The position numbers and the translations under genes were made by a program. Of a stretch of 32,000 nucleotides of DNA, positions 1-20,718 are shown piece by piece. Under the pieces are notes generated by a model. It was not told the DNA's origin. It did not search any database and was given only the letters and a program-made list of their open reading frames with translations. Source of the stretch: Flavobacteriaceae bacterium (GTDB lineage: Bacteria; Bacteroidota; Bacteroidia; Flavobacteriales; Flavobacteriaceae); NCBI GenBank assembly GCA_965224465.1, contig OZ245049.1, forward strand, positions 390,001 through 422,000, written 5' to 3'. Positions within the stretch are counted from its first letter, which is position 1, and each line of letters opens with the position of its first letter.

Positions 1-266
1 TGTCTTTAAAGCCTTTTAAAGCAGTATCAGTATTTCCGGGTTGCCCACTACTTGTTAAAACTTCCTTATTGTAAATATCTACAACCGTAAATGTTTTTGA
101 TGGTTCTGCGTAAGTTGCTGCTATTGTTTTGTTTCTTACACCGTGCGTTGTAGACTCTCCTGCTTTAACAAAATCATTTGGTGTCATTTTATTTGCAGAA
201 GTCAAATGATTTTGGTCTTTTCCGAAATTTAAAACACTAGGACTATCTAAAAGCATATAAATTATA
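1..266 (-). pseudogene. 5'-truncated fragment of a polymorphic-toxin C-terminal domain (third copy of the CTD of ORF 10713..11951); continues off the left window edge
   Basis: nt 1-266 align without gaps to nt 10982-11247 at roughly 95% identity, and more loosely to about 6686-6940. Homology ends abruptly at 266, where the IS terminal repeat begins. Confidence 0.75.
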
Positions 267-1680
267 GGTTGTGTAATTTAAACTCTGTCTGCTTGTTTTT
301 TTCTACGTTTTAAAATAGTTCGATTTTCTCTTCATAAGGCTGCTTTAAAAATCGAACTATTTTAAAATGAGCCCCAGCGGCTAGCGTCACGAATTGCTTC
401 CGTTTTTATGTAAATCCAACGTTATTCGATCTTCAAATTTAATATATAATTGTTGAATTGTCAAGCACCAATTATGTAAAGGGTTTGTCCATTTTTTTTC
501 GATATTTTTTGTTGCTAAGTAAACAAGCTTTAATAGTGCCATATCACTGGTAAAAGCCCCTTTTGTTTTAGTTACTTTTCTTACCTGTCTATGAAAACCT
601 TCTACTGCATTTGTTGTGTAAATTATTTTTCTGATAGGTTCTGTATACTGAAAAAACTGAGATAACTCTTCCCAATTACGGTTCCAACTTTCTAAAACTA
701 CAGGGTATTTTTCTCCCCATTTTTCTTCTAATTTCAATAACTCCAACTCAGCAATATCCTTATTAACAGCCTTGTAAACAAGCTTTAAATCTCGAATAAA
801 TTCTTTTTGGTCTTTGGAAGCTATATACTTTAAAGAATTACGAATTTGATGAACAATACACTTTTGAATTTGTGTTTTAGGAAATACACTCAAGATAGCT
901 TCTGAAAACCCTTTTAAGTTGTCTGTACAGGCAATTAGGATATCCTTAAGCCCTCTGTTATTAAGGTCTGTCAATACTTGAAGCCAAAAATTTGCGCCTT
1001 CACTTTCTGAAATATACATTCCTAAAACCTCTTTGATCCCTTCTTTATTTACTCCTAAAACATTGTAAAGTGCTTTGTGTTGTATTTTACCGTCTACTTT
1101 TACCTTGTAATGCATAGCGTCAAGCCAAACAATGCAGTACATCTGTTCTATTGGACGACTTTGCCATTGTTTTATATCTGGTATGATCTTATCTGTAATT
1201 TGACTTAAAACAGTGTGTGATATATCTGTATCATACATCTCTTTTATATGACCAGAAATATCGCGTAAGCTCATTCCTAGGCCGTATAATCCAATGATCT
1301 TATCTGATAAATTATCTGCTAAAATGGTTTGACGCTTTTTTATCAGAACAGGCTCGAAACTACTATTTCTATCCGCTGGCGTGCTTATTTCAAAACTACC
1401 AATACTAGTTTTAACAGTCTTTTTGCCCTTTCCATTACGTTTATTCCCTTTAGAACGTTCCTCTTCACTAAGGTGTGATTCCATTTCTGCTTCCAATGCT
1501 TTCTCAAGAAATTGTTTCATTAAAGGAGCAAAGGCACCTTCTTTTCCGAATAAACTTTTTCCTGATAATAATTGATCCAATGCCTTTTTTTCAATGTTGG
1601 CTAACTCGTCTTTTGTCATGTTTTCTGTTTGAATAAAGTTAATACTTTTTTTTATTCAGACAGAGTTGAGTTTACAGTCC
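267..1680 (-). mobile_element. IS256-family insertion sequence (about 1.4 kb)
   Basis: Single transposase ORF. Imperfect terminal inverted repeats: GGTTGTGTAATTTAAACTCTGTCTG at 267 versus the reverse complement GGACTGTAAACTCAACTCTGTCTG ending at 1680. The ends were placed where homology to the flanking paralogous genes stops. Confidence 0.8.
387..1619 (-). CDS. IS256-family (Mutator-type) transposase, 410 aa
   Basis: Length and sequence pattern typical of IS256/Transposase_mut proteins: N-terminal LSGKSLFGKEGAFAPLMKQFLEKALEAEMESHL, central WLDAMHYKV and C-terminal TTNAVEGFHRQVRKVTK. Confidence 0.9.
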   Translation of the reverse strand: MTKDELANIEKKALDQLLSGKSLFGKEGAFAPLMKQFLEKALEAEMESHLSEEERSKGNKRNGKGKKTVKTSIGSFEISTPADRNSSFEPVLIKKRQTILADNLSDKIIGLYGLGMSLRDISGHIKEMYDTDISHTVLSQITDKIIPDIKQWQSRPIEQMYCIVWLDAMHYKVKVDGKIQHKALYNVLGVNKEGIKEVLGMYISESEGANFWLQVLTDLNNRGLKDILIACTDNLKGFSEAILSVFPKTQIQKCIVHQIRNSLKYIASKDQKEFIRDLKLVYKAVNKDIAELELLKLEEKWGEKYPVVLESWNRNWEELSQFFQYTEPIRKIIYTTNAVEGFHRQVRKVTKTKGAFTSDMALLKLVYLATKNIEKKWTNPLHNWCLTIQQLYIKFEDRITLDLHKNGSNS

Positions 1681-2323
1681 CAGTTATCCTTAAAAACTTG
1701 CCATTTACGCCATCTATTCTGTAAACTTTAATGTCTTTAAGGTTATATTTTTCATTTCCATCTAATACAACTTGCCATTCTGGTTTTGCATTTGGGAATT
1801 CGTTTAAATTATTGTGTGTTAAATTAAACCCTGTAACCTGATAATTTTCAATGTCTTTTTTTGCAATTCTCTTTACTATTTCTATAGCTTCAGCCCAACA
1901 TATTTTATAGCCTTTTTCGTAGTCTATTACTTTCGTTATTTTTCCTTGTTCATTGTAATGAGTTTCTTTATTTATTTTAGAATTACCATTTTCATATTTA
2001 AATAAACTCCATCTTATTTTATTGTTTTTATACCTTATCCATTTAGAAATATTTATTTTTTTGTTTATATAGACATTTGTCACATCATTATCACCTAGAT
2101 TCAAATATTCATTTTTATAATTTTCATTATCAAGTAAAATTAAATCACCTTCTTTATTTTTTAGTTGCTTTTGTATGTTCTGATCAAGTACCAACTCCTC
2201 TTTAGAAATTTTAAAAACAGGATAATTATAATGGCAAGTATTATTATTAATTAAATATCCTTTAGGAACAGAGGAACAATTAGTAAAAAAAATACTTAAT
2301 AATAAAATATATAAATATTTCAT
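1652..2323 (-). CDS. putative immunity lipoprotein, paralog c of three; 3' end replaced by IS sequence
   Basis: Lipoprotein signal MKYLYILLLSIFFTNC. The C-terminal half is near-identical to 2396..3064 and 3137..3805. The last 12 or so codons (ITGTVNSTLSE) differ from the paralog tail (TTRIITTHH) because they read into the IS right end. Confidence 0.6.
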   Translation of the reverse strand: MKYLYILLLSIFFTNCSSVPKGYLINNNTCHYNYPVFKISKEELVLDQNIQKQLKNKEGDLILLDNENYKNEYLNLGDNDVTNVYINKKINISKWIRYKNNKIRWSLFKYENGNSKINKETHYNEQGKITKVIDYEKGYKICWAEAIEIVKRIAKKDIENYQVTGFNLTHNNLNEFPNAKPEWQVVLDGNEKYNLKDIKVYRIDGVNGKFLRITGTVNSTLSE

Positions 2324-2395
2324 ATTATTTTAATTTAGAATATTGTTGTAATTTTTCCCACTGCCATTTGTAGGTGCGCCTCGTTAACTACTGGC

Positions 2396-3064
2396 TTAGT
2401 GGTGAGTTGTTATTATTCTAGTTGTCCTTAAAAACTTGCCATTTATGCCATCTATTCTGTAAACTTTAATATCTTTAATGTTATATTTTTCATTTCCATC
2501 TAATACAACTTGCCATTCTGGTTTTGCATTTGGGAATTCGTTTAAATTATTGTGTGTTAAATTAAACCCTGTAACCTGATACTTTTCAATGTCTTTTTTT
2601 GCAATTCTCTTTACTATTTCTATAGCTTCAGCCCAACATATTTTATAGCCTTTTTCGTAGTCTATTACTTTCGTTATTTTTCCTTGTTCATTGTAATCAA
2701 ATTCTTTGAATATATTTATATAACTATTCAAATATTTAAATTCAACCCATTTTATTTTCCCTAGATGGTCATATCTTATATATTTAGCTATGTTTATTTG
2801 TTTATTTGTTTGTTTATTTGTTATGTATTCATCTTTCGAATATCTAAATTCATTTTTAAAATATTTATTATCTGTCGTAACAGTATCTTCTTCCTTTTTT
2901 TTCAATTGATAAAGAATTTCGTTATTAAGTGTTAATTCTTCTTTATTAATTTTAAAAATGGGGTAATTATAATGGCAAGTATTATTATTAATTAAATATC
3001 CTTTAGGAACAGGGGAACAATTAGTAAAACAAATACTTAACAATAAAATATATAAATATTTCAT
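2396..3064 (-). CDS. putative immunity lipoprotein, paralog b
   Basis: Lipobox signal peptide. Lies in the tandem 741-bp unit downstream of the metallopeptidase-type effector. Confidence 0.6.
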   Translation of the reverse strand: MKYLYILLLSICFTNCSPVPKGYLINNNTCHYNYPIFKINKEELTLNNEILYQLKKKEEDTVTTDNKYFKNEFRYSKDEYITNKQTNKQINIAKYIRYDHLGKIKWVEFKYLNSYINIFKEFDYNEQGKITKVIDYEKGYKICWAEAIEIVKRIAKKDIEKYQVTGFNLTHNNLNEFPNAKPEWQVVLDGNEKYNIKDIKVYRIDGINGKFLRTTRIITTHH

Positions 3065-3136
3065 ATTATTTTAATTTAGAATATTGTTGTAATTTTTCCC
3101 ACTGCCATTTGTAGGTGCGCCTCGTTAACTACTGGC

Positions 3137-3805
3137 TTAGTGGTGAGTTGTTATTATTCTAGTTGTCCTTAAAAACTTGCCATTTACGCCATCTATTCTG
3201 TAAACTTTAATATCTTTAAGGTTATATTTTTCATTTCCATCTAATACAACTTGCCATTCTGGTTTTGCATTTGGGAATTCGTTTAAATTATTGTGTGTTA
3301 AATTAAACCCTGTAACCTGATACTTTTCAATGTCTTTTTTAGCAATTCTCTTTACTATTTCTATAGCTTCAGCCCAACATATTTTATAGCCTTTTTCGTA
3401 ATCTATTACTTTCGTTATTTTTCCTTGTTCATTGTAATGGGTTTCTTTGAAGATAGGTTTTGTGCCATTGATGTAAACAAAACTTACTCTTTTAATTGTT
3501 CTGTTTTTTCTATATAAAATCCATTTATCAATGCCTAATTGTTTGCTTGTTTGGTAATTTGCAATACTTCCACTAGATAAAACAGAAAATAGATTTTTAT
3601 AATTCTCATTGTCTGATATGACAATATCCCCGTTTTCGTCTTTTGATTGTTTTAAAATATTTGGATTAAGGACTAATTCTTCTTTAGTTATTTTAAAAAT
3701 AGGTTCGTTGTAATGACATGTATTATCATTTGCTAAATATTCTTTAGGAACAGAGAAACAATTAGTAAAACAAATACTTAACAATAAAATATATAAATAT
3801 TTCAT
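3137..3805 (-). CDS. putative immunity lipoprotein, paralog a (directly coupled to effector 3807..4946)
   Basis: Its start lies 1 nt after the effector stop. Lipobox signal MKYLYILLLSICFTNC. Confidence 0.6.
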   Translation of the reverse strand: MKYLYILLLSICFTNCFSVPKEYLANDNTCHYNEPIFKITKEELVLNPNILKQSKDENGDIVISDNENYKNLFSVLSSGSIANYQTSKQLGIDKWILYRKNRTIKRVSFVYINGTKPIFKETHYNEQGKITKVIDYEKGYKICWAEAIEIVKRIAKKDIEKYQVTGFNLTHNNLNEFPNAKPEWQVVLDGNEKYNLKDIKVYRIDGVNGKFLRTTRIITTHH

Positions 3806-3806
3806 A

Positions 3807-4946
3807 TTATTTTAATTTAGAATATTGTTGTAATTTTTCCCACTGCCATTTGTAGGTGTGTTTTTTATGATTATTATAATCCATATAATTGTCTGTTTTT
3901 GCGTCCTTAAATTTATGTATACTTTGAAAGGCATCCCTTAATCCTAAAGCGTGCATTATTTCGTGAATTATATTTTCTGATTTAATGTTTCCTTCAGGGT
4001 CTAATACCAAATAGGCGATTCCAGTACCTGCAGGAGATATACCTCCTGCAGCCTTAAAAGATCCCTCTTCTGGAATGTCTTTTTCATTGATACATTTTTG
4101 ATTGATAAAATAAATAGTTAATTTGTTTGTATCTTTATTGTGTTTATTATTAATATAAGATAAAATGGTGCTTATTTTACTCCTTTCAATATAGTTTCCA
4201 ATTCTATTGTCAATATTTTTTTTTAGAAAACCATGTTTTTTAAAATTTTCTAAATGTTCACTAATATCGACCATCGTTGGATTATTATTAGTGATATTGA
4301 TATCAATTAAAGCAGGATTTAAACCTTTTTTAAGGTCTTTTTCTAAATCTAATTTGTTGATTTCTTTACCTAAAGCGAATTCATCTTTTTCATCTCCTTG
4401 AATTTCGACAAAACACCATTCAAGGTCAATAGTTTTGGGTTTAGGGTAAAAGATATTAATTGCTCCAACAATTAATTCATCATCCGCTTTTATTAAGATT
4501 TGAGCAGAAGTTACATTGTTGTTTTTACAGGTTATTTTTACTTTTTTAGCATCTTTTAAGTTCTTTGGTTCAAAAGTAAAATCGGCATGAGGTTCAAAAC
4601 TTATAGTTTCATAGTCATCTGCTTTTCCTTTTTTCGTCCAATCAAGTTCCAATTCGACTGTTTGGTCTTTTCTTAAACTTAACCAAGAAGGAATGTATTG
4701 CTCTCCTCGTATTTTTTCTGAGAGCGGCTTGTATTCTTTTTTAAGTTTTTCGTAGTCCGATACAACAATTTTTTCTTTAGGGATCCTATCAAAACCGAAA
4801 ACGCCCCTCATAATATCTTTATTTCTTGCTATAAATTCGATTTTAAAAGGTTTTTTAGTAGCAATTGGCTGTAAATATCTAGTTAATGTTTCTCCGTCTT
4901 CAAATGTTATTCTAAAACCTGTTTTTTTCATTTTTTGAGTTCCCAT
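3807..4946 (-). CDS. T6SS-associated effector with a C-terminal metzincin/M43-like zinc metallopeptidase domain (379 aa)
   Basis: HEIMHALGLRD (HExxHxxGxxD) at about nt 3941-3970, followed by DNYMDY, which resembles the N[FY]MDY Met-turn block of the M43 pappalysin/cytophagalysin family. TAATG stop-start overlap with the upstream hcp copy. Confidence 0.6.
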   Translation of the reverse strand: MGTQKMKKTGFRITFEDGETLTRYLQPIATKKPFKIEFIARNKDIMRGVFGFDRIPKEKIVVSDYEKLKKEYKPLSEKIRGEQYIPSWLSLRKDQTVELELDWTKKGKADDYETISFEPHADFTFEPKNLKDAKKVKITCKNNNVTSAQILIKADDELIVGAINIFYPKPKTIDLEWCFVEIQGDEKDEFALGKEINKLDLEKDLKKGLNPALIDINITNNNPTMVDISEHLENFKKHGFLKKNIDNRIGNYIERSKISTILSYINNKHNKDTNKLTIYFINQKCINEKDIPEEGSFKAAGGISPAGTGIAYLVLDPEGNIKSENIIHEIMHALGLRDAFQSIHKFKDAKTDNYMDYNNHKKHTYKWQWEKLQQYSKLK

Positions 4947-5584
4947 TACTTTTTCACTTTTTGTTTAATCACTTTTAACTCAATCTGTTCTAAATCGTTA
5001 CTTATTTCGATATTACTAAGGGTATCATTAGGTAGCAAATTACCATTGTACTCAAAATCATACTTAGCATCATCTAAATTAATTGTTATAAAACCTCCTC
5101 TACGGTTTTTCGTTTCTATATTTAATAGTATAATATCATTATCTTTATAATCTTGAATTTCTTCATTATCGGAATTCGTTAAATAATACCTTATTATTTC
5201 TTTCTCATCATCTCTCTCTAACACCGTTGGTTCAACTTCTATAAAAGGATCTTCAAACACCCAATTTTCTATTTTTTTAACATCTTTTATTTTAACAGCA
5301 CCACACGTTATCGTTAAATTAATGTGTAAGGGCAAATTGTCTTGATTGTCAAATTCTTCTGTAAGACCTACAATATAGGCTTTATGGAATTCTACTTTGT
5401 ACAAGGTTTTAAACTCATCTCTGTCATAAAATATTAATTCACCGCTAAAACTAGCATTTGGTGAAAACATATAGTGATACAAATCGCTATCAAACCCAGT
5501 AGATTCAAACATTAAATGGAATGGGCTTTTACGCGTTGTGGTCGTAGGGTTTCCCGTAATATCTTTTAGTTTGTATAATACCAA
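4946..5584 (-). CDS. tssD: 5'-truncated TssD/Hcp copy with C-terminal extension type B (212-aa ORF; only a junction-created TTG start)
   Basis: nt 5221-5578 are more than 99% identical to the intact hcp (12224-12581). It lacks the first 22 codons, and its C-terminal 70 or so aa differ from the other two copies. Confidence 0.7.
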   Translation of the reverse strand: MVLYKLKDITGNPTTTTRKSPFHLMFESTGFDSDLYHYMFSPNASFSGELIFYDRDEFKTLYKVEFHKAYIVGLTEEFDNQDNLPLHINLTITCGAVKIKDVKKIENWVFEDPFIEVEPTVLERDDEKEIIRYYLTNSDNEEIQDYKDNDIILLNIETKNRRGGFITINLDDAKYDFEYNGNLLPNDTLSNIEISNDLEQIELKVIKQKVKK

Positions 5585-5811
5585 TTACAATCCAAAATAA
5601 CCGATATAAATAGTTTATTTTACGTTCTAGCGTTGTTAAAAAACAGAACGATAGCTATCCTTAGATTTTACGCCTAGCTAGAACAAAAAATTAATTTCAT
5701 TTCTAAACCGTCACTTGAAAATGTATTTGGTATTAATACAGCTACCAACAGCAATCTGTAGATAAAATATTTACTTCAAGTTAACACAGAATCTTAGATA
5801 TTAACTGGACT
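5579..5811. repeat. R element copy 1 (long form)
   Basis: About 98% identical to 9852..10084. The core AATTACAATCCAAAATAAC...GTTGTTAAAAAACAGAACGAT is shared with 13326..13403 and 17769..17929. Confidence 0.85.
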
Positions 5812-6417
5812 TTATTCATACTTAGTTTTTCGTAAATCTTTATACTTACAGTTTTTTGTTCTGTAACACTCAATAACATCACTATTTATATTTTTATATA
5901 AAATTTCTAATAAGCCTTCTTTTAGTTCGAAAAAATTCCAATTTGCTGGAATATCAATATAATTTGCTTCTTTGTCATTTTTCATTGCGAAAATTAGAAC
6001 ACGTATTCCTAAATAACCTTTTGTTCGATTTCCTTGAGCGTTCTCTAAAAACGGCTTAATGGACAAGCTGTCATTTGTACACTTTATATTGTGTACGTAA
6101 AAAATACATTTTTTTTTATAGGTATAACTTGTTGTCTTTACTAATAATTCCTTTTCGTTTAAATTAAAAATGTAGCTTATAAAATTAGAACTACTATTAG
6201 TTAACTCATCGGAATATTTAGTACCTGTATGTTTTACATCTTTTAATAATTTTAATACGCTTTTAAAATCAATTTTGGTTTGTAATCCTTTTTTTTTTAT
6301 ACGTGTACTATCAGAAACAACAATTTTAATTATTGGAATTTCTTTATTTGTTTTAATAGTTTTTTTAAAACAAACTAAAAATGGTATAATAAATAATATT
6401 ATAAAATAGTTTTTCAT
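5812..6417 (-). CDS. putative immunity lipoprotein for the orphan Cys/His toxin CTD (homolog of 10085..10711)
   Basis: Signal peptide. Shares a conserved C-terminal block with 10085..10711: IKPFLENA.G..T.GY...RVLIFAMKNDKEAN.IDIP...LLEILYKNI.SDVIEC.RTK.CKYKDLRKTK.E. Confidence 0.55.
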   Translation of the reverse strand: MKNYFIILFIIPFLVCFKKTIKTNKEIPIIKIVVSDSTRIKKKGLQTKIDFKSVLKLLKDVKHTGTKYSDELTNSSSNFISYIFNLNEKELLVKTTSYTYKKKCIFYVHNIKCTNDSLSIKPFLENAQGNRTKGYLGIRVLIFAMKNDKEANYIDIPANWNFFELKEGLLEILYKNINSDVIECYRTKNCKYKDLRKTKYE

Positions 6418-6419
6418 AA

Positions 6420-7178
6420 TTATTTCTTTTTATTTCTAAGTTGATAGATTTCTAATTTCATAGGGTATTTATCTCTCCAAGCGTAAACTGTTCCTAAAAA
6501 ATAATTTTCAAGCTGCTTACATGTTCTTGGTATTACACCAACTATTTGGTCAATAAATTGAAATTCAAAAGTGTCATCTTTTTTATTTACAATAACTGTA
6601 AAAGAATGGTAATCATCGTTATAAGCACCAATAAAAACATAATTGCCATTATCTGGACACTTGCTTTTCATATAATCAATTGGACTGTCTTTAAAGCCTT
6701 TTAAAGCAGTATCAGTATTTCCGGGTTGCCCACTACTTGTTAAAACTTCCTTATTGTAAATATCTACTACAGTAAATGTTTTTGATGGTTCTGCGTAAGT
6801 AGCTGCTATTGTTTTGTTTCTTACACCGTTAGTTGTAGATTCTCCTGCTTTTTCATAGTCTTTTGGAGTGTCTCTACCTACTATTTGGTCTTTTCCTAAA
6901 ATTAAACTTGAAGGATTGTCTAAAAGTTTATAAATTATGTGTTTATGTGTATCCGTACAATGATGATAATCAGAGTATTTATTAGCATTTCGCTGTTTAT
7001 TATAATTTGCTATTGCATACACATTAATTTCTTCAATTTTCTCTTTACTAAACTCCCATTCGTTAAGGGTTTCGTAAACTATTTTCATACACCCACAAAA
7101 CAAGTTTTCATAATCCCCAGTTGAATACCCCTCTTCATTATCATTAGCTAAAAAACGAATATAGAATGCTACACTTTA
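6420..7178 (-). pseudogene. orphan toxin module: Cys/His CTD paralog plus a 75-nt remnant of the conserved effector N-terminal domain (ORF-track ORF 6420..7103)
   Basis: nt 7104-7178 match 11405-11480, which encodes ...SVAFYIRFLANDNEEGYSTGDYENLFCGC. Homology stops 14 nt after the stop of the upstream immunity gene. There is no N-terminal domain or native start. Confidence 0.7.
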
Positions 7179-7192
7179 TTCATGCTAAAACC

Positions 7193-8023
7193 CTAAATTC
7201 TTTTTAGAACATATTTTAAAGAATCTTTTTTTTCGAGAAATAGATTGTTGTTTTTGATATAGAAGTACCATTCTTCTTCGTTTAACCTGATTAAATACTT
7301 TTTGTTACTTTCACTTTTTGGATTAGCTAATGTGCTATAGTTGGTATTCGAGTACGTTTTAAAAATATCAGAACCAATGATTTTTTTTTCTAGGATGTCA
7401 AAATAAATTTTAGATTCTAGTAAATTGTTACAGGAGTCATATAGATCAAAAGTTTTTTTGAAAAAATAAACATCTCTTTGCAATCGATAATAAAAAAGAT
7501 CATTAAATATAAAACTCTTTAAATTAGAACAATAATGGATACTATCTTTACTTGTAATAATACTAAATTGATTTTTCCTCTTTACTAAAAAAATAGAATC
7601 TTTATTCTGGTAATGATGAGTATTAAATTTGGTTAGATAATAAGTACTGTCATTAATCGCAACTACTCGTAATTTTCTATAATCAAATTTTGAACTATTA
7701 GCATAAATCTTTTTTTGTTTCCAATTACTAATATGAATAAATTCGTATGGATAACTTTCGTTATTTCTAATTGAAGTATCATCAAATCCTTTTAAATTTA
7801 AATTATAAACAAAGTCGACAGGCATCCAAAAGGAATTGTCTATTGATTTTTTATTATAAACAAAATCGGAGGAGTCCAAACTCATAAAACGGGTGGTTTT
7901 AAGAGTGTCTTGTTTTGTTTTTGTGTTTAATTCTTTTTTAAATTGTTGGTCTTTAGATTTTTTTTTTGAATTACAAAAAACTAAAGAAAAGCAAAGTAAA
8001 ATGATAAAAAATATTTTTTTCAT
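7193..8023 (-). CDS. putative immunity lipoprotein for the Tae4-like effector (276 aa)
   Basis: Lipoprotein signal MKKIFFIILLCFSLVFC. Starts 6 nt downstream of the effector stop. Confidence 0.5.
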   Translation of the reverse strand: MKKIFFIILLCFSLVFCNSKKKSKDQQFKKELNTKTKQDTLKTTRFMSLDSSDFVYNKKSIDNSFWMPVDFVYNLNLKGFDDTSIRNNESYPYEFIHISNWKQKKIYANSSKFDYRKLRVVAINDSTYYLTKFNTHHYQNKDSIFLVKRKNQFSIITSKDSIHYCSNLKSFIFNDLFYYRLQRDVYFFKKTFDLYDSCNNLLESKIYFDILEKKIIGSDIFKTYSNTNYSTLANPKSESNKKYLIRLNEEEWYFYIKNNNLFLEKKDSLKYVLKRI

Positions 8024-8029
8024 ATCTAT

Positions 8030-9223
8030 TTATTTCAATTCCCAATACCATATTTCATCAGCTCCATAGTAACCCGATCCTGTCTGACCGTGGTAAATAA
8101 CATCTATGTGACTAACACCTCCATCACTTTTATCCCATAAAAAAACAATCCCATTGGCAGAATTTGGATTGAATTCACTAGTGTTTTTAAATTTTTCAGG
8201 TATAAAAACATTATTATGTAACCAATCAGCTAAACCTTTGGAGGATCTGGCAAATCCATCTCTTGTTTTGTTTATACTAGGGTAAGAAAACAAATTAAAA
8301 TTAGAATTAGTTAATCCATAAGAAAGACGAATAGCACATTGATTATAATACTTATCATGATCAATAGTTACATCTTGTCTGTGAGCCCCAACTTTATCGG
8401 TAGGGTATTTATGTATTAATTCACCTAAACTTGGAAGTCCTCCTTTATTTTTAAAACTCCAATTAAACTTGTTTTTTTCTTCTTTTAATCTTTCTTTTTC
8501 TAATTTTAAACTAAAAAACTTTTTATTTTCAAGGGATTTATACTCACCGTCTGATACAAGTATTGTTCTGTTCTTTTCAAATTCAGAATTTACTTCTCCT
8601 AAAAACTCTCCATCTGAATTACTATAAAAATATATTTTTGATTTTATAACAATAGTCTCAACCTTAAAACACCCACAAAACAAGTTATCATAATCCCCAG
8701 TTGAATACCCCTCTTCATTATCATTAGCTAAAAAACGAATATAGAATGCTACACTTTCTTCTGTTGTAATATCAACTTCCACTTCTATTTCAGAACCAAA
8801 TTTAGCTAAAATATTATCACTAAACGTTGTTTCAGATTTTTGCTTAATTTTTGCTGTAACCCCTTTAACTTCTACAAATTTGTCTTTTTCCTGAGATATT
8901 TCTATTTCTATATACCCATCGTCGTCTTCCCATTGTTCATCAGGACCTCCTTTTTTAATTAGAAAAGGTATTACTGGTTTTTGTAGTGCGGTTAGTAATG
9001 TAGTTATAGTTTCGTTTTTTTTACTGTCGTTAGTTTGGGTTAAGAGGTCTACAAAAACATGTTTATCGTTTTCATCCTTTTCTAAAGGGAGTTTATCTTT
9101 TTCAATATTGTATCCTGTCGTATCTCTTAATTCTACTAGAGGTATAAATTCTGTCCATTCTAAGCCTTCTCCTGTGTATGAATTACTAGGGTTTCCTGTT
9201 TCACTTACTGTTATGGTTCCCAT
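8030..9223 (-). CDS. T6SS-associated effector: conserved N-terminal domain plus a Tae4-like peptidoglycan amidase CTD (397 aa)
   Basis: YYNQCAIRLSYGLTN and GIVFLWDKSDGGVSHIDVIY resemble the catalytic Cys and His blocks of Tae4 (NACPIRMSYVLN ... GHVTLW). The N-terminal 190 aa are near-identical to 10713..11951. Confidence 0.65.
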   Translation of the reverse strand: MGTITVSETGNPSNSYTGEGLEWTEFIPLVELRDTTGYNIEKDKLPLEKDENDKHVFVDLLTQTNDSKKNETITTLLTALQKPVIPFLIKKGGPDEQWEDDDGYIEIEISQEKDKFVEVKGVTAKIKQKSETTFSDNILAKFGSEIEVEVDITTEESVAFYIRFLANDNEEGYSTGDYDNLFCGCFKVETIVIKSKIYFYSNSDGEFLGEVNSEFEKNRTILVSDGEYKSLENKKFFSLKLEKERLKEEKNKFNWSFKNKGGLPSLGELIHKYPTDKVGAHRQDVTIDHDKYYNQCAIRLSYGLTNSNFNLFSYPSINKTRDGFARSSKGLADWLHNNVFIPEKFKNTSEFNPNSANGIVFLWDKSDGGVSHIDVIYHGQTGSGYYGADEIWYWELK

Positions 9224-9224
9224 A

Positions 9225-9857
9225 CTAACTATTTTGTTTTTTAGAGTTTAATTCTATTTTCATAGTATCTGAAGTTATATTAAAACCATTTATTTTATTG
9301 TCTTCAAGTAATTGTCCTTGGTGTTCCAGTGGTGCATTAATTGAACTTAAATCTATATCTGTTTGTTTACCTGTCATATCTTGTGTTTTTAGGATTAAAA
9401 ACACTTTTACACCTTTTTGTATCTTAGACACTCTTTCTCCTTGACTGTCTTGGAAATAGGTTTCTAAGACAGCTCCTTCTCCACTATTTTCTAACACCGT
9501 TGGTTCAACTTCTATAAAAGGATCCTCAAACACCCAATTTTCTATTTTTTTAACATCTTTTATTTTAACAGCTCCACACGTTATCGCTAAATTAATGTGT
9601 AAGGGCAAATTGTCTTGATTGTCAAATTCTTCTGTAAGACCTACAATATAGGCTTTATGGAATTCTACTTTGTACAAGGTTTTAAACTCATCTCTGTCAT
9701 AAAATATTAATTCACCGCTAAAACTAGCATTTGGTGAAAACATATAGTGATACAAATCGCTATCAAACCCAGTAGATTCAAACATTAAATGGAATGGGCT
9801 TTTACGCGTTGTGGTCGTAGGGTTTCCCGTAATATCTTTTAGTTTGTATAATACCAA
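9225..9857 (-). CDS. tssD: 5'-truncated TssD/Hcp copy with C-terminal extension type A (210-aa ORF, TTG start only)
   Basis: Near-identical to codons 23-231 of 11953..12648. The junction with the R element is at the same nucleotide as in 4946..5584. Confidence 0.7.
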   Translation of the reverse strand: MVLYKLKDITGNPTTTTRKSPFHLMFESTGFDSDLYHYMFSPNASFSGELIFYDRDEFKTLYKVEFHKAYIVGLTEEFDNQDNLPLHINLAITCGAVKIKDVKKIENWVFEDPFIEVEPTVLENSGEGAVLETYFQDSQGERVSKIQKGVKVFLILKTQDMTGKQTDIDLSSINAPLEHQGQLLEDNKINGFNITSDTMKIELNSKKQNS

Positions 9858-10084
9858 TTACAATCCAAAATAACCGATATAAATAGTTTATTTTACGTTC
9901 TAGCGTTGTTAAAAAACAGAACGATAGCTATCCTTAGATTTTACGCCTAGCTAGAACAAAAAATTAATTTCATTTCTAAACCGTCACTTGAAAATGTATT
10001 TGGTATTAATACAGCTACCAACAGCAATCTGCAGATAAAATATTTACTTCAAGTTAACACAGAATCTTAGACATTAACTGGACT
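9852..10084. repeat. R element copy 2 (long form)
   Basis: See copy 1. It fills the whole immunity-to-hcp intergenic space. Confidence 0.85.
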
Positions 10085-10711
10085 TTATTCAGACTTAGTT
10101 TTTCGTAAATCTTTATACTTACATTTTTTTGTTCTGTTACACTCAATAACATCACTATCAATATTTTTATATAGGATTTCTAATAATTCTTTTCTTAATT
10201 TAAGAGGATTCATTTTTTCTGGTATATCAATAAAATTTGCTTCTTTATCGTTTTTCATAGCGAAAATTAGAACACGATTTTGTGTATAACCTCGTGTAGT
10301 TTTCCCAAAGGCGTTTTCTAAAAAAGGCTTTATGCTTATGTCGTTTTTAATGTGTTTTAAATTATGTACATAAAATTTTAAGTTATTTTTGTATTCATAA
10401 CTGATTGTTTTTATTACAAACTTTCGATTATTAAGTAGAAAAACAGAATCTAAAGTACGTGCTCTATCAAACATCCAATCCTTATTTTTTTTTCCAACAT
10501 TTTTAACATTTTTAATATTAGATAATAAGTTATTAAAATTTATTGCAGTTTGTAGGTGTTTTTTCTTTATAACTTTTATAGAGTCTAAAGTTAAATTATT
10601 AAAAGAAGTATTAGAATTACTCTTATCAAATATAATTTTATTATTTGGTTTGGTTCCTTTACAACTAGACGTCAGTAATAGGATAAATAATACTAAAAAA
10701 TAACTTTTCAT
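10085..10711 (-). CDS. putative immunity lipoprotein for effector 10713..11951 (208 aa)
   Basis: Lipobox LLLTSSC. The start is 1 nt after the effector stop (TAA A ATG). Confidence 0.55.
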   Translation of the reverse strand: MKSYFLVLFILLLTSSCKGTKPNNKIIFDKSNSNTSFNNLTLDSIKVIKKKHLQTAINFNNLLSNIKNVKNVGKKNKDWMFDRARTLDSVFLLNNRKFVIKTISYEYKNNLKFYVHNLKHIKNDISIKPFLENAFGKTTRGYTQNRVLIFAMKNDKEANFIDIPEKMNPLKLRKELLEILYKNIDSDVIECNRTKKCKYKDLRKTKSE

Positions 10712-10712
10712 T

Positions 10713-11951
10713 TTACTTCGTTTTATTTCTTAATTGATACAGTTCTAATTTCATAGGGAAATTAGAAGCGTAATCATCTATATTAATTAAAAATTTTAAA
10801 TTTTCTAATTTTTCACCTGTATAATATTGAACACCTACCATTTGGTCAATAAATTGAAATTCAAAAGTGTCATCTTTTTTATTTACAATAACTGTAAAAG
10901 AATGGAAATCATCGTCATAAGCGCCAATAAAAACATAATTGCCATTATCTGGACACTTGCTTTTCATATAATCAATTGGACTGTTTTTAAAGCCTTTTAA
11001 AGCAGTATCAGTATTTCCGGGTTGCCCACTACTTGTTAAAACTTCCTTATTGTAAATATCTACAACAGTAAATGTTTTTGATGGTTCTGCGTAAGTTGCT
11101 GCTATTGTTTTGTTTCTTACACCGTTAGTTGTAGATTCTCCTGCTTTAACAAAATCATTTGGTGTCATTCTATTCGCAGAAGGCAAATGATTTTGGTCTT
11201 TTCCAAAATTTAAAACACTAGGACTATCTAAAAGCATATAAATTATATGCTTGTGCGTATCTGTACAATGATGATATCTATTTGCATCTCCGCCTCCGCT
11301 GTATTTTGCACAATTAGCTCTTGCGTACACTTTAATTTCTTCAATTTTCTCTTTACTAAACTCCCATTCGTTAGGGGTTTCGTAAACTATTTTCATACAC
11401 CCACAAAACAAGTTTTCATAATCCCCTGTTGAATACCCCTCTTCATTATCATTAGCTAAAAAACGAATATAGAATGCTACACTTTCTTCTGTTGTAATAT
11501 CCACTTCCACTTCTATTTCAGAACCAAATTTAGCTAAAATCTTATCACTAAACGTTGTTTCAGATTTTTGCTTAATTTTTGCTGTAACCCCTTTAACTTC
11601 TACAAATTTGTCTTTTTCCTGAGATATTTCTATTTCTATATACCCATCGTCGTCTTCCCATTGTTCATCAGGACCTCCTTTTTTAATTAGAAAAGGAATT
11701 ACTGGTTTTTGTAGTGCGGTTACTAATGTAGTTATAGTTTCGTTTTTTTTACTGTCGTTAGTTTGGGTTAAGAGGTCTACAAAAACATGTTTATCGTTTT
11801 CATCCTTTTCTAAAGGGAGTTTATCTTTTTCAATATTGTATCCTGTCGTATCTCTTAATTCTACTAGAGGTATAAATTCTGTCCATTCTAAGCCTTCTCC
11901 TGTGTATGAATTACTAGGGTTTCCTGTTTCACTTACTGTTATGGTTCCCAT
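10713..11951 (-). CDS. T6SS-associated effector: conserved N-terminal domain plus an unclassified Cys/His CTD (412 aa)
   Basis: Starts 1 nt after the hcp stop (TAG T ATG). Shares its N-terminal domain with 8030..9223 up to the LFCGC junction. The CTD has the conserved blocks YHHCTDTHKHIIY, DD[FY]HSFTVIV and FIDQ. Confidence 0.65.
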   Translation of the reverse strand: MGTITVSETGNPSNSYTGEGLEWTEFIPLVELRDTTGYNIEKDKLPLEKDENDKHVFVDLLTQTNDSKKNETITTLVTALQKPVIPFLIKKGGPDEQWEDDDGYIEIEISQEKDKFVEVKGVTAKIKQKSETTFSDKILAKFGSEIEVEVDITTEESVAFYIRFLANDNEEGYSTGDYENLFCGCMKIVYETPNEWEFSKEKIEEIKVYARANCAKYSGGGDANRYHHCTDTHKHIIYMLLDSPSVLNFGKDQNHLPSANRMTPNDFVKAGESTTNGVRNKTIAATYAEPSKTFTVVDIYNKEVLTSSGQPGNTDTALKGFKNSPIDYMKSKCPDNGNYVFIGAYDDDFHSFTVIVNKKDDTFEFQFIDQMVGVQYYTGEKLENLKFLINIDDYASNFPMKLELYQLRNKTK

Positions 11952-11952
11952 A

Positions 11953-12648
11953 CTAACTATTTTGTTTTTTAGAGTTTAATTCTATTTTCATAGTATCTGA
12001 AGTTATATTAAAACCATTTATTTTATTGTCTTCAAGTAATTGTCCTTGGTGTTCCAGTGGTGCATTAATTGAACTTAAATCTATATCTGTTTGTTTACCT
12101 GTCATATCTTGTGTTTTTAGGATTAAAAACACTTTTACACCTTTTTGTATCTTAGACACTCTTTCTCCTTGACTGTCTTGGAAATAGGTTTCTAAGACAG
12201 CTCCTTCTCCACTATTTTCTAACACCGTTGGTTCAACTTCTATAAAAGGATCCTCAAACACCCAATTTTCTATTTTTTTAACATCTTTTATTTTAACAGC
12301 TCCACACGTTATCGCTAAATTAATGTGTAAGGGTAAATTGTCTTGATTGTCAAATTCTTCTGTAAGACCTACAATATAGGCTTTATGGAATTCTACTTTG
12401 TACAAGGTTTTAAACTCATCTCTGTCATAAAATATTAATTCACCGCTAAAACTAGCATTTGGTGAAAACATATAGTGATACAAATCGCTATCAAACCCAG
12501 TAGATTCAAACATTAAATGGAATGGGCTTTTACGCGTTGTGGTCGTAGGGTTTCCCGTAATATCTTTTAGTTTGTATAAGGTGTATTCTGCTCTTAATAA
12601 CGTTCTTTCTTTTCCATCTATAATGGCGATGCCTTTAAAACTACTCAT
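11953..12648 (-). CDS. tssD: intact type VI secretion tube protein TssD/Hcp (Bacteroidota type) with an approximately 90-aa C-terminal extension (231 aa)
   Basis: Matches the Bacteroidota TssD pattern: F..GKE...L...Y.L......G.P......FESTG...L..YMF......G.IF.D......K.EF..AYIV...E.F......PL.I.L.I....VKI......NW. It is the only copy with an ATG and the first beta-strand region. Confidence 0.8.
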   Translation of the reverse strand: MSSFKGIAIIDGKERTLLRAEYTLYKLKDITGNPTTTTRKSPFHLMFESTGFDSDLYHYMFSPNASFSGELIFYDRDEFKTLYKVEFHKAYIVGLTEEFDNQDNLPLHINLAITCGAVKIKDVKKIENWVFEDPFIEVEPTVLENSGEGAVLETYFQDSQGERVSKIQKGVKVFLILKTQDMTGKQTDIDLSSINAPLEHQGQLLEDNKINGFNITSDTMKIELNSKKQNS

Positions 12649-13310: not shown

Positions 13311-13325
13311 AAAGGAGGTTTACGT

Positions 13326-13403
13326 ACAATACCAATTACAATCCAAAATAACATATATAAATAGGTTGTTTTGCGTGCTGTCGTTGTTAAAAAACAGAAC
13401 GAT
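13326..13403. repeat. R element copy 3 (core only)
   Basis: AATACCAATTACAATCCAAAATAACATATATAAATAGGTTGTTTTGCGTGCTGTCGTTGTTAAAAAACAGAACGAT. Closest to copy 4. Confidence 0.8.
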
Positions 13404-13779: not shown

Positions 13780-15609
13780 TTATTCATTCAATTCATCTTC
13801 AGTTACAATTCTAATATTCCCCGCGAATTTAGCAATAATATTCTTTTTAGTTACAGCTTCAGGAAATGCCATTGCTAACACTTTTTTAGGTCTAGACATT
13901 GCTACATAAATTAATCTTTTCTTCTCACTAGGAAAGGTATTGTCAGAATTACAAATGTCTTCAAAAAGTATATTGCTAGCGTGTTTTCTATCGTTAAAGA
14001 AAATTAATACTGAATCTAAAGTTTTACCTTTCACTTGGTGAATAGTAGTAATTGGAATGTTAGATTCCGAATACGATTTTTTAAAATGAATGTTAACAGA
14101 TTCATTTAGTGTTATATCTTTATTGAAAAATTTAGATTTTCTATTTCTTAGATTAAAATTCACGTCATAATGTAAGCCCAATTTTTCTTTCATAAAAATT
14201 TGAGTTTGATTTGTCCAATCTGCAACTGTTAATTCAAAACTTGGTAGCTCAATTAGAATCTGAAATAAAAGTGAATTAAAAAGATGGTCTTCTTTTGAAT
14301 TTCTTTCAATTTCCTTTAACTGATGATAGTCACTTTCTGGATTTAATAACTTTATAGAAATAGTACGTATTTCGTTTATGGAATTTTTGATATCATTACC
14401 CTTAAAACGATTTTTTGCCGTAATAATTTCTTTTGGCAACTCAATACCCCAAGGTCTTTCTTCTGTTGTTTTTCCTAATAATTTATTCTTTAATGAGTTT
14501 CCTCTAACTACAATATTGTTCTTTTCAAAATTGTTGGTCGAGCAAAGTTCTTCATAGTGTTTAATAATTGATTGAAGATTGTTCTCAGAATATTTATAAA
14601 TAATAATTGAATTGTCTTTTGTAGGATTGCCAACAGAACTTATTTTTGCGTCATTAGCTTTTCTTAGTATAGAAAAAATGTCAATAATATTTTGAGGTGA
14701 CCGCCTGTTGTCTGTTAGGTCAAATGAATTCCAACTATCGTCTTCATTATACTTTTTTAAAAATTCATTTGGATTTGCATCTCTCCATTGATAGAGGCTT
14801 TGATAAGGGTCGCCAATTAATTCTATGTTTTTTAATCCTTGCTTAGACAATTCTTCAAAGATTGCGTGTTGAATTAAAGAATTATCTTGAGCCTCATCAA
14901 TTATGATAAAAGGAAACCTTAAAGATAACCATTGACAAATTTTCGGTTTTTTCCTTAAAATATGGAGAGCTATATATGCAGAATCTCCTGTTGAGATTAA
15001 GCCTTTAGTAAATTGTGTATTCTTAATTAATTTGCAATAATTTTTAAACTTATCTAGTTCAACTTTATCTGGTGATGGTTGATTACCTTTCACAGAATAA
15101 CTTCCATCTTGTTCAATTCTAATTTCGCTAGGTGGATATAAATGATAGATACTTCTATTATTTTTTGCTTTATATGCATCAAAGTTTAAAGGTCTTTTTA
15201 AACCTTCTTTTGTTTTTCCATTTTTGTCAATGTAATTGATTTTCCACATTTCATCTAGAATATTTGTGTGGTCAAGGATTTTAGGTCTTTTAAACTTTCT
15301 ATCTAATATATTATAAAAAGGAAGTGTAATAAATTTATTTATAAAACTATCAATAGTGGAAACGTGATTAGGAAAGCTTAAAATTTTCCCGCTCAGTTTT
15401 GAATAAGATTCGTTTATTTCATCCTTTGCTGAGTTCGTAAAAGAAAGACAAGCAATACCTGAATATGAATTGACCTCTTTTAATTGCTGTAATTCTATTA
15501 TTTTTTGTGCAATTGTAGTTGTTTTACCGCTTCCAGGACAGGCGTTTAATATGATTTTACCTCTTGCTTGAAGATATGCCGTTCTTTCTTCATTTAAGTC
15601 ATAAATCAT
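13780..15609 (-). CDS. gajB: UvrD/PcrA/Rep-like SF1 helicase, GajB-like (609 aa)
   Basis: Helicase motifs CPGSGKTTT (I), IIIDEAQDNS (II), GDPYQSLYQWRDA (III), NRRSP (IV), TIHQVKGKTLDSV (V) and YVAMSRPKKVL (VI). ATGA start-stop overlap with the upstream OLD-family gene. Confidence 0.8.
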   Translation of the reverse strand: MIYDLNEERTAYLQARGKIILNACPGSGKTTTIAQKIIELQQLKEVNSYSGIACLSFTNSAKDEINESYSKLSGKILSFPNHVSTIDSFINKFITLPFYNILDRKFKRPKILDHTNILDEMWKINYIDKNGKTKEGLKRPLNFDAYKAKNNRSIYHLYPPSEIRIEQDGSYSVKGNQPSPDKVELDKFKNYCKLIKNTQFTKGLISTGDSAYIALHILRKKPKICQWLSLRFPFIIIDEAQDNSLIQHAIFEELSKQGLKNIELIGDPYQSLYQWRDANPNEFLKKYNEDDSWNSFDLTDNRRSPQNIIDIFSILRKANDAKISSVGNPTKDNSIIIYKYSENNLQSIIKHYEELCSTNNFEKNNIVVRGNSLKNKLLGKTTEERPWGIELPKEIITAKNRFKGNDIKNSINEIRTISIKLLNPESDYHQLKEIERNSKEDHLFNSLLFQILIELPSFELTVADWTNQTQIFMKEKLGLHYDVNFNLRNRKSKFFNKDITLNESVNIHFKKSYSESNIPITTIHQVKGKTLDSVLIFFNDRKHASNILFEDICNSDNTFPSEKKRLIYVAMSRPKKVLAMAFPEAVTKKNIIAKFAGNIRIVTEDELNE

Positions 15610-17537
15610 ATTCCTTGTCTTAAATGAGTTAATCCTTCTTGTATGTACGGAGGGATTACGAAAGATACTTTTGCGTTTTCTAAGTTTTCAAGAATATGTA
15701 TTGAAAAATCTTGAGCAAAGTCAGCTTTTGATGGCAGGGCTTTCCATAGCAAAATTCCTACTTTACGTTTTTCAGAATCAGACATAATATCATTATCAAA
15801 TTTTTGAGTGTATTTAATGATTTTATCAATTTTATCTAAATAATTTTGATTGACATAGTTAAAAAGAAAGTTGTCAAGTAGTTCTGTGCGATTATCCTTA
15901 ATGTTGTGAATGGCCAATTCATACTCTAAAGTTTTATAAGAGTGTAATATCTTTATGTTATCAGCATTATTTGCAACAGAATTTAGATTAGCAATTCTTG
16001 TTACCGCAGTTCCATTTTGAATGTTATAGTCTAATTCATCTAATATAGAATAATCTGTTTCTAGTAATTTATTAAAACTATAGATTGATTTTTTAGAATC
16101 CGTAAATCGGTCGTCATCTGTTAGGACTGTAATGGGCTTGTTAATTCTTTTGCTTTCTTCTTGGTTGTTGAATAGATATAAAAAAGGATAGAATGACGTA
16201 CCTTTTACATTTACGACTTCAACTCTATAATCTTCAAGTTGATAATCGTCTAAGCTTGTAAAAGATGAAAGTAAAAGTTCTTCTGAAATTCCTTCTACAA
16301 ACAATACTGATTTTGCGTAAAAAAGTTGAGACTTTGTTACGTCAATATAACGCTCAAGTTTTTTTTGACTTAATTGATAATCAATGTCTCTTAATGGAAT
16401 ATTCTTAGTTGTATCTTGAATTATATTTTCAGCTATTCTATTTTGAAATTGATGTTCTAGTTTATAAGCTTTTTTATTATCTAATAAAATTAGATTTTTT
16501 AAGGGTACTTTTGAAGTTAGAGTAGGAGAATGGGTAGTTATGAATAACTGACTATTATCTGAAGTGTTAGCACTTGTAAGAAAGTTATATAAACTTAACT
16601 GAAGTTGTGGATGCAAATGAGCTTCAGGTTCTTCAATTAAAAGGGCGTAATGAGGAATTTCGTTATCTTCAATTTGTTCTTTAACATCACCCAATACTAT
16701 TGCAATGTAAATGAGATTATTTAAACCTAAGCTATTTTGCCATAAATGGAATCCTTCTTCATTTAAAGTTTCTCTGTTATGAGGTAAAAAAGGTTTTATT
16801 GCATTGACAATATATTCTGTTTTTGATTCTTCTATTCTAAGACCAATTTTGTTGTCTAGAAATTTCTTAAAAATCCCTTCTAAATTTTGGTTTACACCAT
16901 CTCTAGTACTTATGACTTCATCTCTTTCAAGTAGCTGAGAATTTGCATCTTTCATTATTTGTTCAATCTTAGCTTCCGTTTCATTTCTTTTCACGAATCT
17001 TTTGATTACTCTTCCCAAAACATTTCCTCGAGTACTTAATAAATCACGAGTACTATCTCTTAAAGCTCCTAAATAATAATGTTGAAATAATTCAAATGTT
17101 TTGTAGTCTGCTTTTTGACCATCAATATCTCCCGTATTGTATGAAAATTGAGGATATTTTCCGTCTTTCTCCTCATAACTGATTGTTATTTTAGCATAAT
17201 CTTCTGCCGTGTCATCTGGGTCGATTACCATATATTCATAAAAAGCTCCTTTCTGCGAAATTGTAAGTCCTTTAAAAATATATGTTATTGTAATTAGTGT
17301 GGCTTTTTCAATATGGATTCCAGAGTCAGTTGTCACTTTTTTTTGGTAAAAATCATCTGATGATACTGATATTTCTCTTATCGGTTCACCAATATTGTAT
17401 AGTAATCTTATTGCATCAATTATGGCAGATTTACAACTTCCATTTTCTCCAATAATTATATTGATATTAGGGTCAAACTCTGTTTCTATAATTTCAACTC
17501 CTTTGTAATTTTCTACTTTAATATATGATAAGTACAT
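15606..17537 (-). CDS. gajA: OLD-family ATP-dependent endonuclease (ABC-type ATPase plus TOPRIM), GajA-like (643 aa)
   Basis: P-loop GENGSCKS, signature-like NSLGLNNL, Walker B/D-loop ALLIEEPEAHLHPQLQ and H-loop ITTHSP. TOPRIM Glu in VLFVEGISEE and DxD in VLTDDDR. Class 2 OLD gene order, with a UvrD helicase immediately downstream. Confidence 0.8.
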   Translation of the reverse strand: MYLSYIKVENYKGVEIIETEFDPNINIIIGENGSCKSAIIDAIRLLYNIGEPIREISVSSDDFYQKKVTTDSGIHIEKATLITITYIFKGLTISQKGAFYEYMVIDPDDTAEDYAKITISYEEKDGKYPQFSYNTGDIDGQKADYKTFELFQHYYLGALRDSTRDLLSTRGNVLGRVIKRFVKRNETEAKIEQIMKDANSQLLERDEVISTRDGVNQNLEGIFKKFLDNKIGLRIEESKTEYIVNAIKPFLPHNRETLNEEGFHLWQNSLGLNNLIYIAIVLGDVKEQIEDNEIPHYALLIEEPEAHLHPQLQLSLYNFLTSANTSDNSQLFITTHSPTLTSKVPLKNLILLDNKKAYKLEHQFQNRIAENIIQDTTKNIPLRDIDYQLSQKKLERYIDVTKSQLFYAKSVLFVEGISEELLLSSFTSLDDYQLEDYRVEVVNVKGTSFYPFLYLFNNQEESKRINKPITVLTDDDRFTDSKKSIYSFNKLLETDYSILDELDYNIQNGTAVTRIANLNSVANNADNIKILHSYKTLEYELAIHNIKDNRTELLDNFLFNYVNQNYLDKIDKIIKYTQKFDNDIMSDSEKRKVGILLWKALPSKADFAQDFSIHILENLENAKVSFVIPPYIQEGLTHLRQGI

Positions 17538-20002: not shown

Positions 20003-20166
20003 AATATAAGCTGTCTTTTTAATCTTTTCAAAAATAGCGATACGGAGCAACATTCAAATTAAATTTTCGACCAAAGTAACTTCTACCCTGTTATTGGCAT
20101 CATTTTTAACGTCGATACTTTTTAATTAACATTGAATATTCTATTTTAGCATTTAAACAAAAAAAG

Positions 20167-20673: not shown

Positions 20674-20718
20674 TCATCTCTATTATTTTTAACCCAAGCT
20701 ATAGTGCTCTCTTTTAAA

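Follow-up and report, generated by a model that had tools for sequence, protein, structure and literature searches.

A 32,000-nucleotide (nt) stretch of a Flavobacteriaceae bacterium genome (contig OZ245049.1, positions 390,001 to 422,000; hereafter, the window) contains an array of effector cassettes in which genes for Hcp (TssD), a component of type VI secretion systems (T6SSs), adjoin genes for effectors and their candidate immunity proteins. We analyzed the site at window positions 11397 to 11411, where the gene for one of these proteins, effector A, encodes the residues LFCGC. This site is probably where the constant module ends in a polymorphic cargo effector that belongs to the Bacteroidota T6SS subtype known as T6SSiii. 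Under this interpretation, the constant N-terminal domain (NTD) of the effector would be loaded by way of an adaptor-like C-terminal extension of the Hcp encoded immediately upstream, and the effector cassettes would be switched by recombination.

All genes of the array are on the minus strand, and their order is given 5′ to 3′ on that strand. Related loci (numbered from L001) were obtained from a genome scan (L001, Aquimarina sp.), protein look-ups, and a metagenome scan. Structures were predicted with AlphaFold2 (AF2). The parts of the array that bear directly on the LFCGC site are the following:

11953..12648, minus strand: full-length TssD/Hcp with extension (Hcp-A); PF17642 match (8.7e-25) over residues 3-130, followed by ~100 more C-terminal residues
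12244-12648, minus strand: TssD core of the full-length Hcp
11956-12216, minus strand: type-A C-terminal extension of the full-length Hcp, ~87 amino acids
10713..11951, minus strand: effector A, 412 amino acids
11382..11951, minus strand: NTD of effector A, residues 1-190, predicted all-beta, unannotated (AF2 model, 31 homologues)
11397..11411, minus strand: LFCGC codons of effector A, residues 181-185, predicted core of the last NTD beta-strand
10713..11381, minus strand: linker and C-terminal type-A toxin domain of effector A, with HHCTDTHKH inside
10085..10711, minus strand: immunity candidate A, lipoprotein-type signal peptide (…LLTSSC), 50% identical to candidate C
9225..9857, minus strand: 5′-truncated Hcp copy without codons 1-22, type-A extension
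8030..9223, minus strand: effector B, 397 amino acids, comprising NTD, LFCGC (8669-8683), linker, and Tae4 amidase domain
7193..8023, minus strand: immunity candidate B, lipoprotein signal; a homologue follows the Tae4 effector in L001
7089..7178, minus strand: residual 3′ end of an NTD (74 nt followed by the LFCGC codons), heading orphan cassette C
6420..7088, minus strand: orphan type-A toxin domain C, 79% amino acid identity to effector A residues 155-409
5812..6417, minus strand: immunity candidate C, 50% identical to candidate A

The break in homology at LFCGC and the NTD family

The window contains exactly three copies of the 15-nt string that encodes LFCGC (TTGTTTTGTGGGTGT), at 11397, 8669, and 7089, and the coordinates that the first-pass annotation had assigned to the motif in effectors A and B and in orphan C all check out on the minus strand. 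That annotation had also described near identity of A and B up to the motif, followed by an abrupt loss of similarity. In a motif-anchored comparison, the 1168 nt ahead of the LFCGC codons contain 7 mismatches between A and B (99.4% identity), whereas just downstream their identity drops to 20 to 43% per 30-nt block, the level expected by chance. The identical block reaches further than had been noted, since besides the entire NTD it includes the extension of the upstream Hcp gene and its core as far back as codon 23. Beyond the break, effector B continues into the Tae4-like domain that had been proposed for it, located at residues 292-393, although the PF14113 score of 28.3 bits is marginal relative to the gathering cutoff of 27. 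Orphan C, whose toxin is of the same type as that of effector A, retains the short stretch of constant region that had been noted: it matches A and B over 74 nt upstream of the motif with one mismatch, and beyond this stretch the homology is lost, 14 nt away from the preceding immunity gene’s stop codon. The orphan (6420-7103 when the motif codons are included) has an in-frame stop codon upstream and has neither a promoter nor a start codon.

The 99.4% identity of A and B ahead of the motif shows a very recent event, and the sharp break could be read as nothing more than a scar left in this genome by a single duplication and recombination, with no meaning for the family as a whole. However, the same boundary, located ~5 to 12 residues past the Cys-Gly (CG) pair, is found in homologues from many samples that are 27 to 58% identical to effector A. 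As the junction is family-wide, a one-off recombination scar is excluded as its source, and we consider this explanation exceedingly improbable.

The homologues were collected by an exhaustive phmmer (HMMER) search of 1.84 billion cluster representatives, since word-indexed protein searches are nearly blind to these families (0, 2, and 4 matches). In total, 33 matches were obtained, 31 of which are true homologues, and all align over residues 1 to ~190. In the resulting alignment (A3), the columns corresponding to F26 and P28 (DEFxP), D100 and G103 (DDDG), F160, F164, D168, and G184 are invariant, and Cys183 is conserved in at least 90% of the family. The junction reads EFY[IL]DFYAND[DN]EDD…GE[YL]xN[VI][HF]CGR[VI]K[IV] and is conserved in 29 to 31 of the 31 distant homologues. 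Thus, the proposal that LFCGC marks a demarcation point holds for the junction but not for the motif as such, which takes the form N[VI][HF]CGR[VI]K[IV] across the family. At the position of the second Cys of LFCGC, most family members have Arg, and Cys is found there only in the window’s own subclade (effectors A and B, or winA and winB, and P0001, P0002, and P0003), so that the earlier idea of a functional Cys pair had to be abandoned. As had been noted, the ~190-residue domain could not be assigned to a described family: Pfam, NCBIfam, and PHROG gave no match to it. With its 31 representatives, the NTD family is small, and its sources, so far as they are informative, are marine.

Starting 5 to 12 residues past CG, the C-terminal domains (CTDs) of the 31 representatives fall into at least 13 mutually unrelated classes by BLASTP clustering. 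These include type A (effector A and orphan C of the window), Tae4 (effector B), a C39-like cysteine peptidase class, which is the largest (8e-8 against PDB entry 9jdd), Amidase_2 (Pfam, 1.4e-13), a GH19-like class (weak match), a TIGR02594-like class, and the HEIGH metallopeptidases. Several further classes are without annotation, and two classes, FSHG and MCFAV, gave no match to PDB sequences. The type-A CTD of effector A gave no match in Pfam, NCBIfam, or PDB sequences, and its AF2 model is poor, with a predicted local distance difference test (pLDDT) score of about 45 to 80. The CTDs that can be assigned to a family look cell wall directed. In these sequence comparisons, NTD similarity is decoupled from CTD similarity. 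Effectors A and B have NTDs with 97% amino acid identity and unrelated CTDs, as do P0009 and P0007 with NTDs that are 83% identical; reciprocally, effector A and P0004 share 40% identity in the NTD but 66% in the CTD, and the corresponding values for P0010 and P0015 are 32% and 63%.

According to Zhang et al. (2012, PMC3482391), polymorphic toxin systems are recognized by a conserved N-terminal trafficking region joined to diverse, unrelated C-terminal toxins, a downstream immunity gene that co-varies with the toxin domain, and orphan cassettes in which a piece of the constant region is kept. The 31 homologues, with their at least 13 CTD classes, display the first of these features. Co-variation of the immunity gene is seen at the gene level: type-A toxins (two window copies and L003, where a homologue of immunity candidate A adjoins the type-A effector and extra immunity paralogues are present) are followed by homologous lipoproteins, and the Tae4-type effectors of the window and L001 are likewise followed by homologues. 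Orphan cassettes are represented by orphan C and by a fragment at 2-265. None of the effectors has a signal peptide; each complete effector in the window is followed by a lipoprotein-type immunity candidate, and the immunity candidates carry lipoprotein signals. Given that the junction is conserved and that the NTD is attached to more than a single CTD type, the core interpretation of the first-pass annotation, a conserved NTD with interchangeable toxins, stands.

The AF2 model of the NTD, computed from alignment A3, is all-beta (pLDDT, 85.6; predicted template modeling score, 0.79), and its thirteenth and last strand comprises residues 181-188, LFCGCMKI. In the model of full-length effector A, the last strand spans residues 181-190, the pLDDT dips over residues 191-199, and a CTD helix begins at residue 200. 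Since the motif lies in the last NTD strand and is followed by a low-confidence linker, the demarcation point is, in these models, the physical end of a folded domain. A Foldseek search of the NTD model against the PDB returned generic beta-sandwiches (best E value, 1.6e-3; TM score, 0.32; none with E<1e-3) and no match to Hcp, VgrG, or PAAR.

A Cys-Gly pair at such a position might instead be an autoprocessing or covalent site that releases or anchors the toxin, similar to the PxxxxDPxGL motif of Rhs proteins, where aspartyl autoproteolysis takes place, or to a HINT-type pre-toxin domain. The nearly invariant Cys183 and the invariant Gly184 are located exactly at the constant/variable boundary, and the residue before the Cys is frequently His, with HCGR present in roughly half of the family. 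However, the Cys is replaced by Ser in P0003 and by Val in P0017, Phe, Tyr, Leu, or Pro frequently takes the place of the His, and the residues are part of a confidently predicted NTD beta-strand rather than a loop. In addition, what follows the site differs from class to class without any relation, which leaves no shared catalytic fold to act there, and Pfam gave no pre-toxin, HINT, or Rhs signal. Processing at the junction is therefore improbable. The likeness to the VENN (CdiA) and PxxxxDPxGL (Rhs) motifs that had been drawn from the sequence extends to the swap junction and the orphan cassette but not to a sequence relation or to a processing site of the Rhs kind. The VENN motif is absent from the sequence and no PT-VENN domain was matched in Pfam; similarly, there is no Rhs/YD match in Pfam, and the translations do not contain PxxxxDPxGL.

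The Hcp extension and the proposed loading of effectors

Upstream DNA is readable in 18 loci encoding the NTD, and in 15 of these an extension-bearing carrier gene is located directly upstream, with the effector start codon nearly always no more than ~5 nt from the carrier stop codon or overlapping it. In the window, the stop codon of Hcp-A is 1 nt ahead of the start codon of effector A. The extension is a beta-rich domain of ~90 amino acids with the consensus (alignment A6) …YFEDxxGEKIxxxxKxxxVxLxIxTxxxxGKxIDIDLSDxxxxFEYNGxxLENxILxxxEITSDxMKIEL, and it matched no Pfam family and no toxin family. Homology between the extension and the NTD was also considered and ruled out (hhalign probability, 0.2%).

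The carrier is a recognizable TssD in 10 of the 15 loci (window A and B, L001, L003, L004/L005, L010, L018/L019, L020, and L021), of which L020 and L021 are cut by contig ends and were assigned by eye only, from a visible N-terminal stretch that resembles a TssD core. In L006, L014, and L022, a contig end leaves the extension alone visible. A TssD matching PF17642 is encoded directly upstream in the window, L001, L003, L004, L005, L010, L018, and L019, which links the effectors to T6SSiii, and L004 is situated within a T6SSiii locus that also encodes a second TssD, TssC, and an AAA+ ATPase resembling ClpB/ClpV. The same extension is present ahead of NTD effectors on a ~230-amino-acid non-Hcp protein, consisting of a ~140-amino-acid N-terminal module and the extension, in three loci:

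L012, 1037-1717: non-Hcp carrier
L015, 1193-1894: non-Hcp carrier
L016, 3093-3794: non-Hcp carrier

The N-terminal module of this protein has no match in Pfam, NCBIfam, or PHROG; a LysM label, given on the basis of likeness by eye, found no support in the same three databases and was dropped. The ~230-amino-acid protein is possibly a new secreted carrier. Because the extension is found on a non-Hcp carrier in these loci, it is the extension, rather than Hcp as such, that travels with the NTD.

A second swap point, which like the Hcp linkage had escaped the first-pass annotation, is located inside Hcp. The type-A Hcp of the window and a second Hcp type, type D, have cores that are 98% identical and extensions that are 23% identical, with DNA identity stopping after the codons for …PTVLE, at about 12217 in copy A. 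The two Hcp copies of L001 likewise share 91% identity in their cores and 27% in their extensions. When the window is compared with L001, the relationship is inverted: extensions of the same type are ~48% identical, whereas the cores are just 30% identical. In both the window and L001, each of the two Hcp copies compared pairs with a different effector N-terminus. In the window, L001, and L017, the type-D extension precedes effectors of another class, and these effectors share the N-terminal motif FxITFEDGE, with HExxH in two of the three (window effector D and L017). Judged by these identities, the extension and the effector N-terminus move as one unit relative to a genome-specific Hcp core, and this joint movement is the main argument for their interaction.

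We propose that the NTD (residues 1-190) would serve as a T6SS loading domain and that the extension would act as an adaptor that binds it, possibly via an N-terminal hairpin. The cargo, tethered to an Hcp protomer, would leave with the tube, and the toxin domain would act in the periplasm of the target. Diversity would be generated by homologous recombination at two boundaries, one between the Hcp core and the extension and the other between the NTD and the toxin, with shared tracts of about 370 nt in the Hcp core and 570 nt in the NTD (89 nt for orphan C). The array would then comprise one complete cassette (Hcp-A, effector A, and immunity A) followed by 5′-truncated spare cassettes, and recombination through the shared Hcp core or NTD could bring a spare cassette into the complete position.

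Alternatively, the NTD could be loaded in the lumen of the Hcp ring, as classical small Hcp-dependent effectors are, with the extension having some other role (tube capping, ring-ring spacing, or chaperoning) and not binding the NTD directly. The lumen of Hcp limits the size of its cargo, and a compact beta-domain of ~21 kDa, such as the NTD, is about right for it. Density has also been seen inside Bacteroides minor-Hcp rings with Bte1 (PMC13213661). However, the extension is also carried by a non-Hcp protein encoded ahead of the same NTD, the effector class co-varies with the extension and not with the Hcp core, and the full effector, at 45 kDa, exceeds one ring. Loading in the lumen is thus an unlikely explanation.

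Several points weigh against adaptor loading and cassette switching. No T6SS core genes are present within the window. Both downstream Hcp copies are without the first strand, which leaves effector D without an intact cognate carrier in the window. The case for cassette switching comes wholly from architecture, and that for extension-NTD binding from linkage and co-variation of the sequences. The proposed mechanism also gives no role to the conserved Cys, which P0003 and P0017 lack, although the nearly invariant residue might contribute to the chemistry of extension-NTD docking. Finally, three loci are without a carrier, namely, L002 (degenerate), L007/L008 (group II intron upstream), and L013.

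In L013 (2962-4966), the gene upstream of the effector encodes a DUF4280 PAAR-like protein that has its own C-terminal tail and not the extension, and in the effector itself a ~150-amino-acid domain replaces NTD residues 1-25. This arrangement suggests that the body of the NTD can be readdressed to the spike tip. The group II intron of L008 (1366-2626; same site in L007), which encodes a reverse transcriptase with RVT_1 and GIIM domains, occupies the place expected for the carrier, just upstream of the GH19-like NTD effector P0012.

A broader form of the adaptor proposal treats the extension and the NTD as a “socket and plug,” that is, a portable T6SSiii loading pair in which the socket may be fused to Hcp, to the ~230-amino-acid protein, and perhaps to others, with at least two specificity types (A and D) in one genome. 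We put this generalization forward tentatively, as a possibility that falls somewhat short of an even chance.

The remainder of the array and its neighborhood

Downstream of orphan cassette C, the array continues with the type-D cassette and ends at the window edge:

4946..5584, minus strand: second 5′-truncated Hcp copy, type-D extension; core 98% identical to the full copy
3807..4946, minus strand: effector D, with a FRITFEDGE-motif N-terminus that differs from the NTD and an HEIMH metallopeptidase motif
1652..3805, minus strand: immunity candidate D, three tandem paralogues with 73 to 75% amino acid identity, in 741-nt repeats
387..1619, minus strand: Mutator-family transposase of an insertion sequence
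2..265, minus strand: fourth fragment of a type-A toxin, covering residues 236-323 with 95% identity to effector A, at the window edge

The start of effector D overlaps the stop codon of the Hcp copy at 4946-5584. The last 18 codons of effector D precede each duplicated copy of immunity gene D (2396-3064 and 1652-2323), a pattern indicating that unequal crossing-over amplified the immunity gene along with the 3′ end of effector D. The insertion sequence seems to have interrupted one further cassette at the end of the array, next to the fragment at 2-265.

An element of ~85 nt is repeated at 13324-13403, 9846-9925, and 5573-5652. One copy lies ~675 nt upstream of the full-length Hcp, and the others are fused to codon 23 of both truncated Hcps, such that the truncated loci resemble the full locus minus a segment of ~810 nt bordered by TGTAC/TATAC. 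The element could be a recombination site, the scar of a deletion, or a promoter or leader that accompanies every cassette. A group II intron without an open reading frame, or another RNA, was suspected upstream of the full-length Hcp; an Rfam scan of the window, the ~85-nt element included, gave no match.

A complete Gabija antiphage system is encoded directly upstream of the array, at 13780-17537 on the minus strand, and the other neighbors look unrelated to the array:

15606-17537, minus strand: GajA (PADLOC model, 2.7e-285)
13780-15609, minus strand: GajB (PADLOC model, 9.9e-104)
18095-20053, minus strand: PNGase-F-like protein
20704-22686, plus strand: EF-G/ribosomal-protection-like GTPase
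23362-28261, plus strand: AcrB-type efflux pump and outer membrane factor

Relation to known systems and implications

The cargo effectors of Proteobacteria T6SSs carry N-terminal marker or delivery domains known as MIX, FIX, RIX, PIX, and WHIX (PMC10435454; bioRxiv 10.1101/2023.07.16.549128 and 10.1101/2024.08.21.608442). As in those effectors, the N-terminal domain described here defines the class, is joined to many C-terminal toxins, and is followed by a downstream immunity gene, often in an orphan island that adjoins a structural gene of the T6SS. Unlike them, the NTD belongs to a small family in Bacteroidota T6SSiii, has no sequence relation to the known domains, and has its partner in an extension on Hcp rather than in VgrG, PAAR, or free adaptors. 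A scan of effectors A and B and 10 homologues for those of the markers that are represented in Pfam found none in the NTD.

A parallel to the carrier is found in Bacteroides fragilis, where the effector encoded downstream of a minor Hcp is bound by it, depends on it for secretion, and co-segregates with it (PMC13213661). As with the Bacteroidales Hcp1/Hcp2-Bte1 pairs, a specialized TssD is encoded directly upstream of a cargo effector (PMC13213661). The Bacteroidales minor Hcps, however, are ~15 to 16 kDa and without an extension, and recognition has been attributed to heteromeric rings (PMC13213661), whereas in the array the Hcp core is constant and an appended domain of ~90 amino acids varies with the effector.

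With Rhs (PxxxxDPxGL) and CdiA (VENN) proteins, the system shares a motif at the constant/variable switch, orphans that keep a piece of the constant region, and a recombination-prone array. It differs from them in having no sequence or fold relation, in that the motif is a predicted terminal beta-strand with no evidence of proteolysis, and in the second swap point within the upstream Hcp gene, owing to which the cassettes may include part of the carrier. Hcp-ET proteins, reportedly described by Ma et al. in 2017, are specialized Hcps of Enterobacteria with C-terminal toxin extensions. They resemble Hcp-A in using an appended C-terminal domain for effector delivery; here, however, the appended domain is no toxin, and the toxin is encoded by a separate, tightly spaced or overlapping downstream gene.

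Polymorphic T6SS cargo effectors with an N-terminal delivery domain and orphan cassettes are well known in general kind. The new elements are the two domain families, neither of which was found described in full-text literature searches, their occurrence in T6SSiii, and the adaptor-like domain that is appended to Hcp and exchanged with the effector class. The selection of cargo effectors and their loading onto Hcp are still poorly understood, and for T6SSiii outside gut Bacteroidales there is hardly any knowledge of them. With its constant Hcp core, its effector-linked appended domain, and an NTD that ends at a recognizable motif, the locus offers a simple handle on this problem. Profiles built from alignments A3 and A6 could serve to search marine Flavobacteriia for T6SSiii effectors and for their toxin/immunity repertoires. 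The nested cassettes extend the orphan concept of Rhs and CdiA systems to part of a structural gene. If the socket and plug pair exists as proposed, it would allow one Hcp core to be readdressed to other effector classes by cassette exchange and would represent a cargo selection mechanism that is new for any T6SS.

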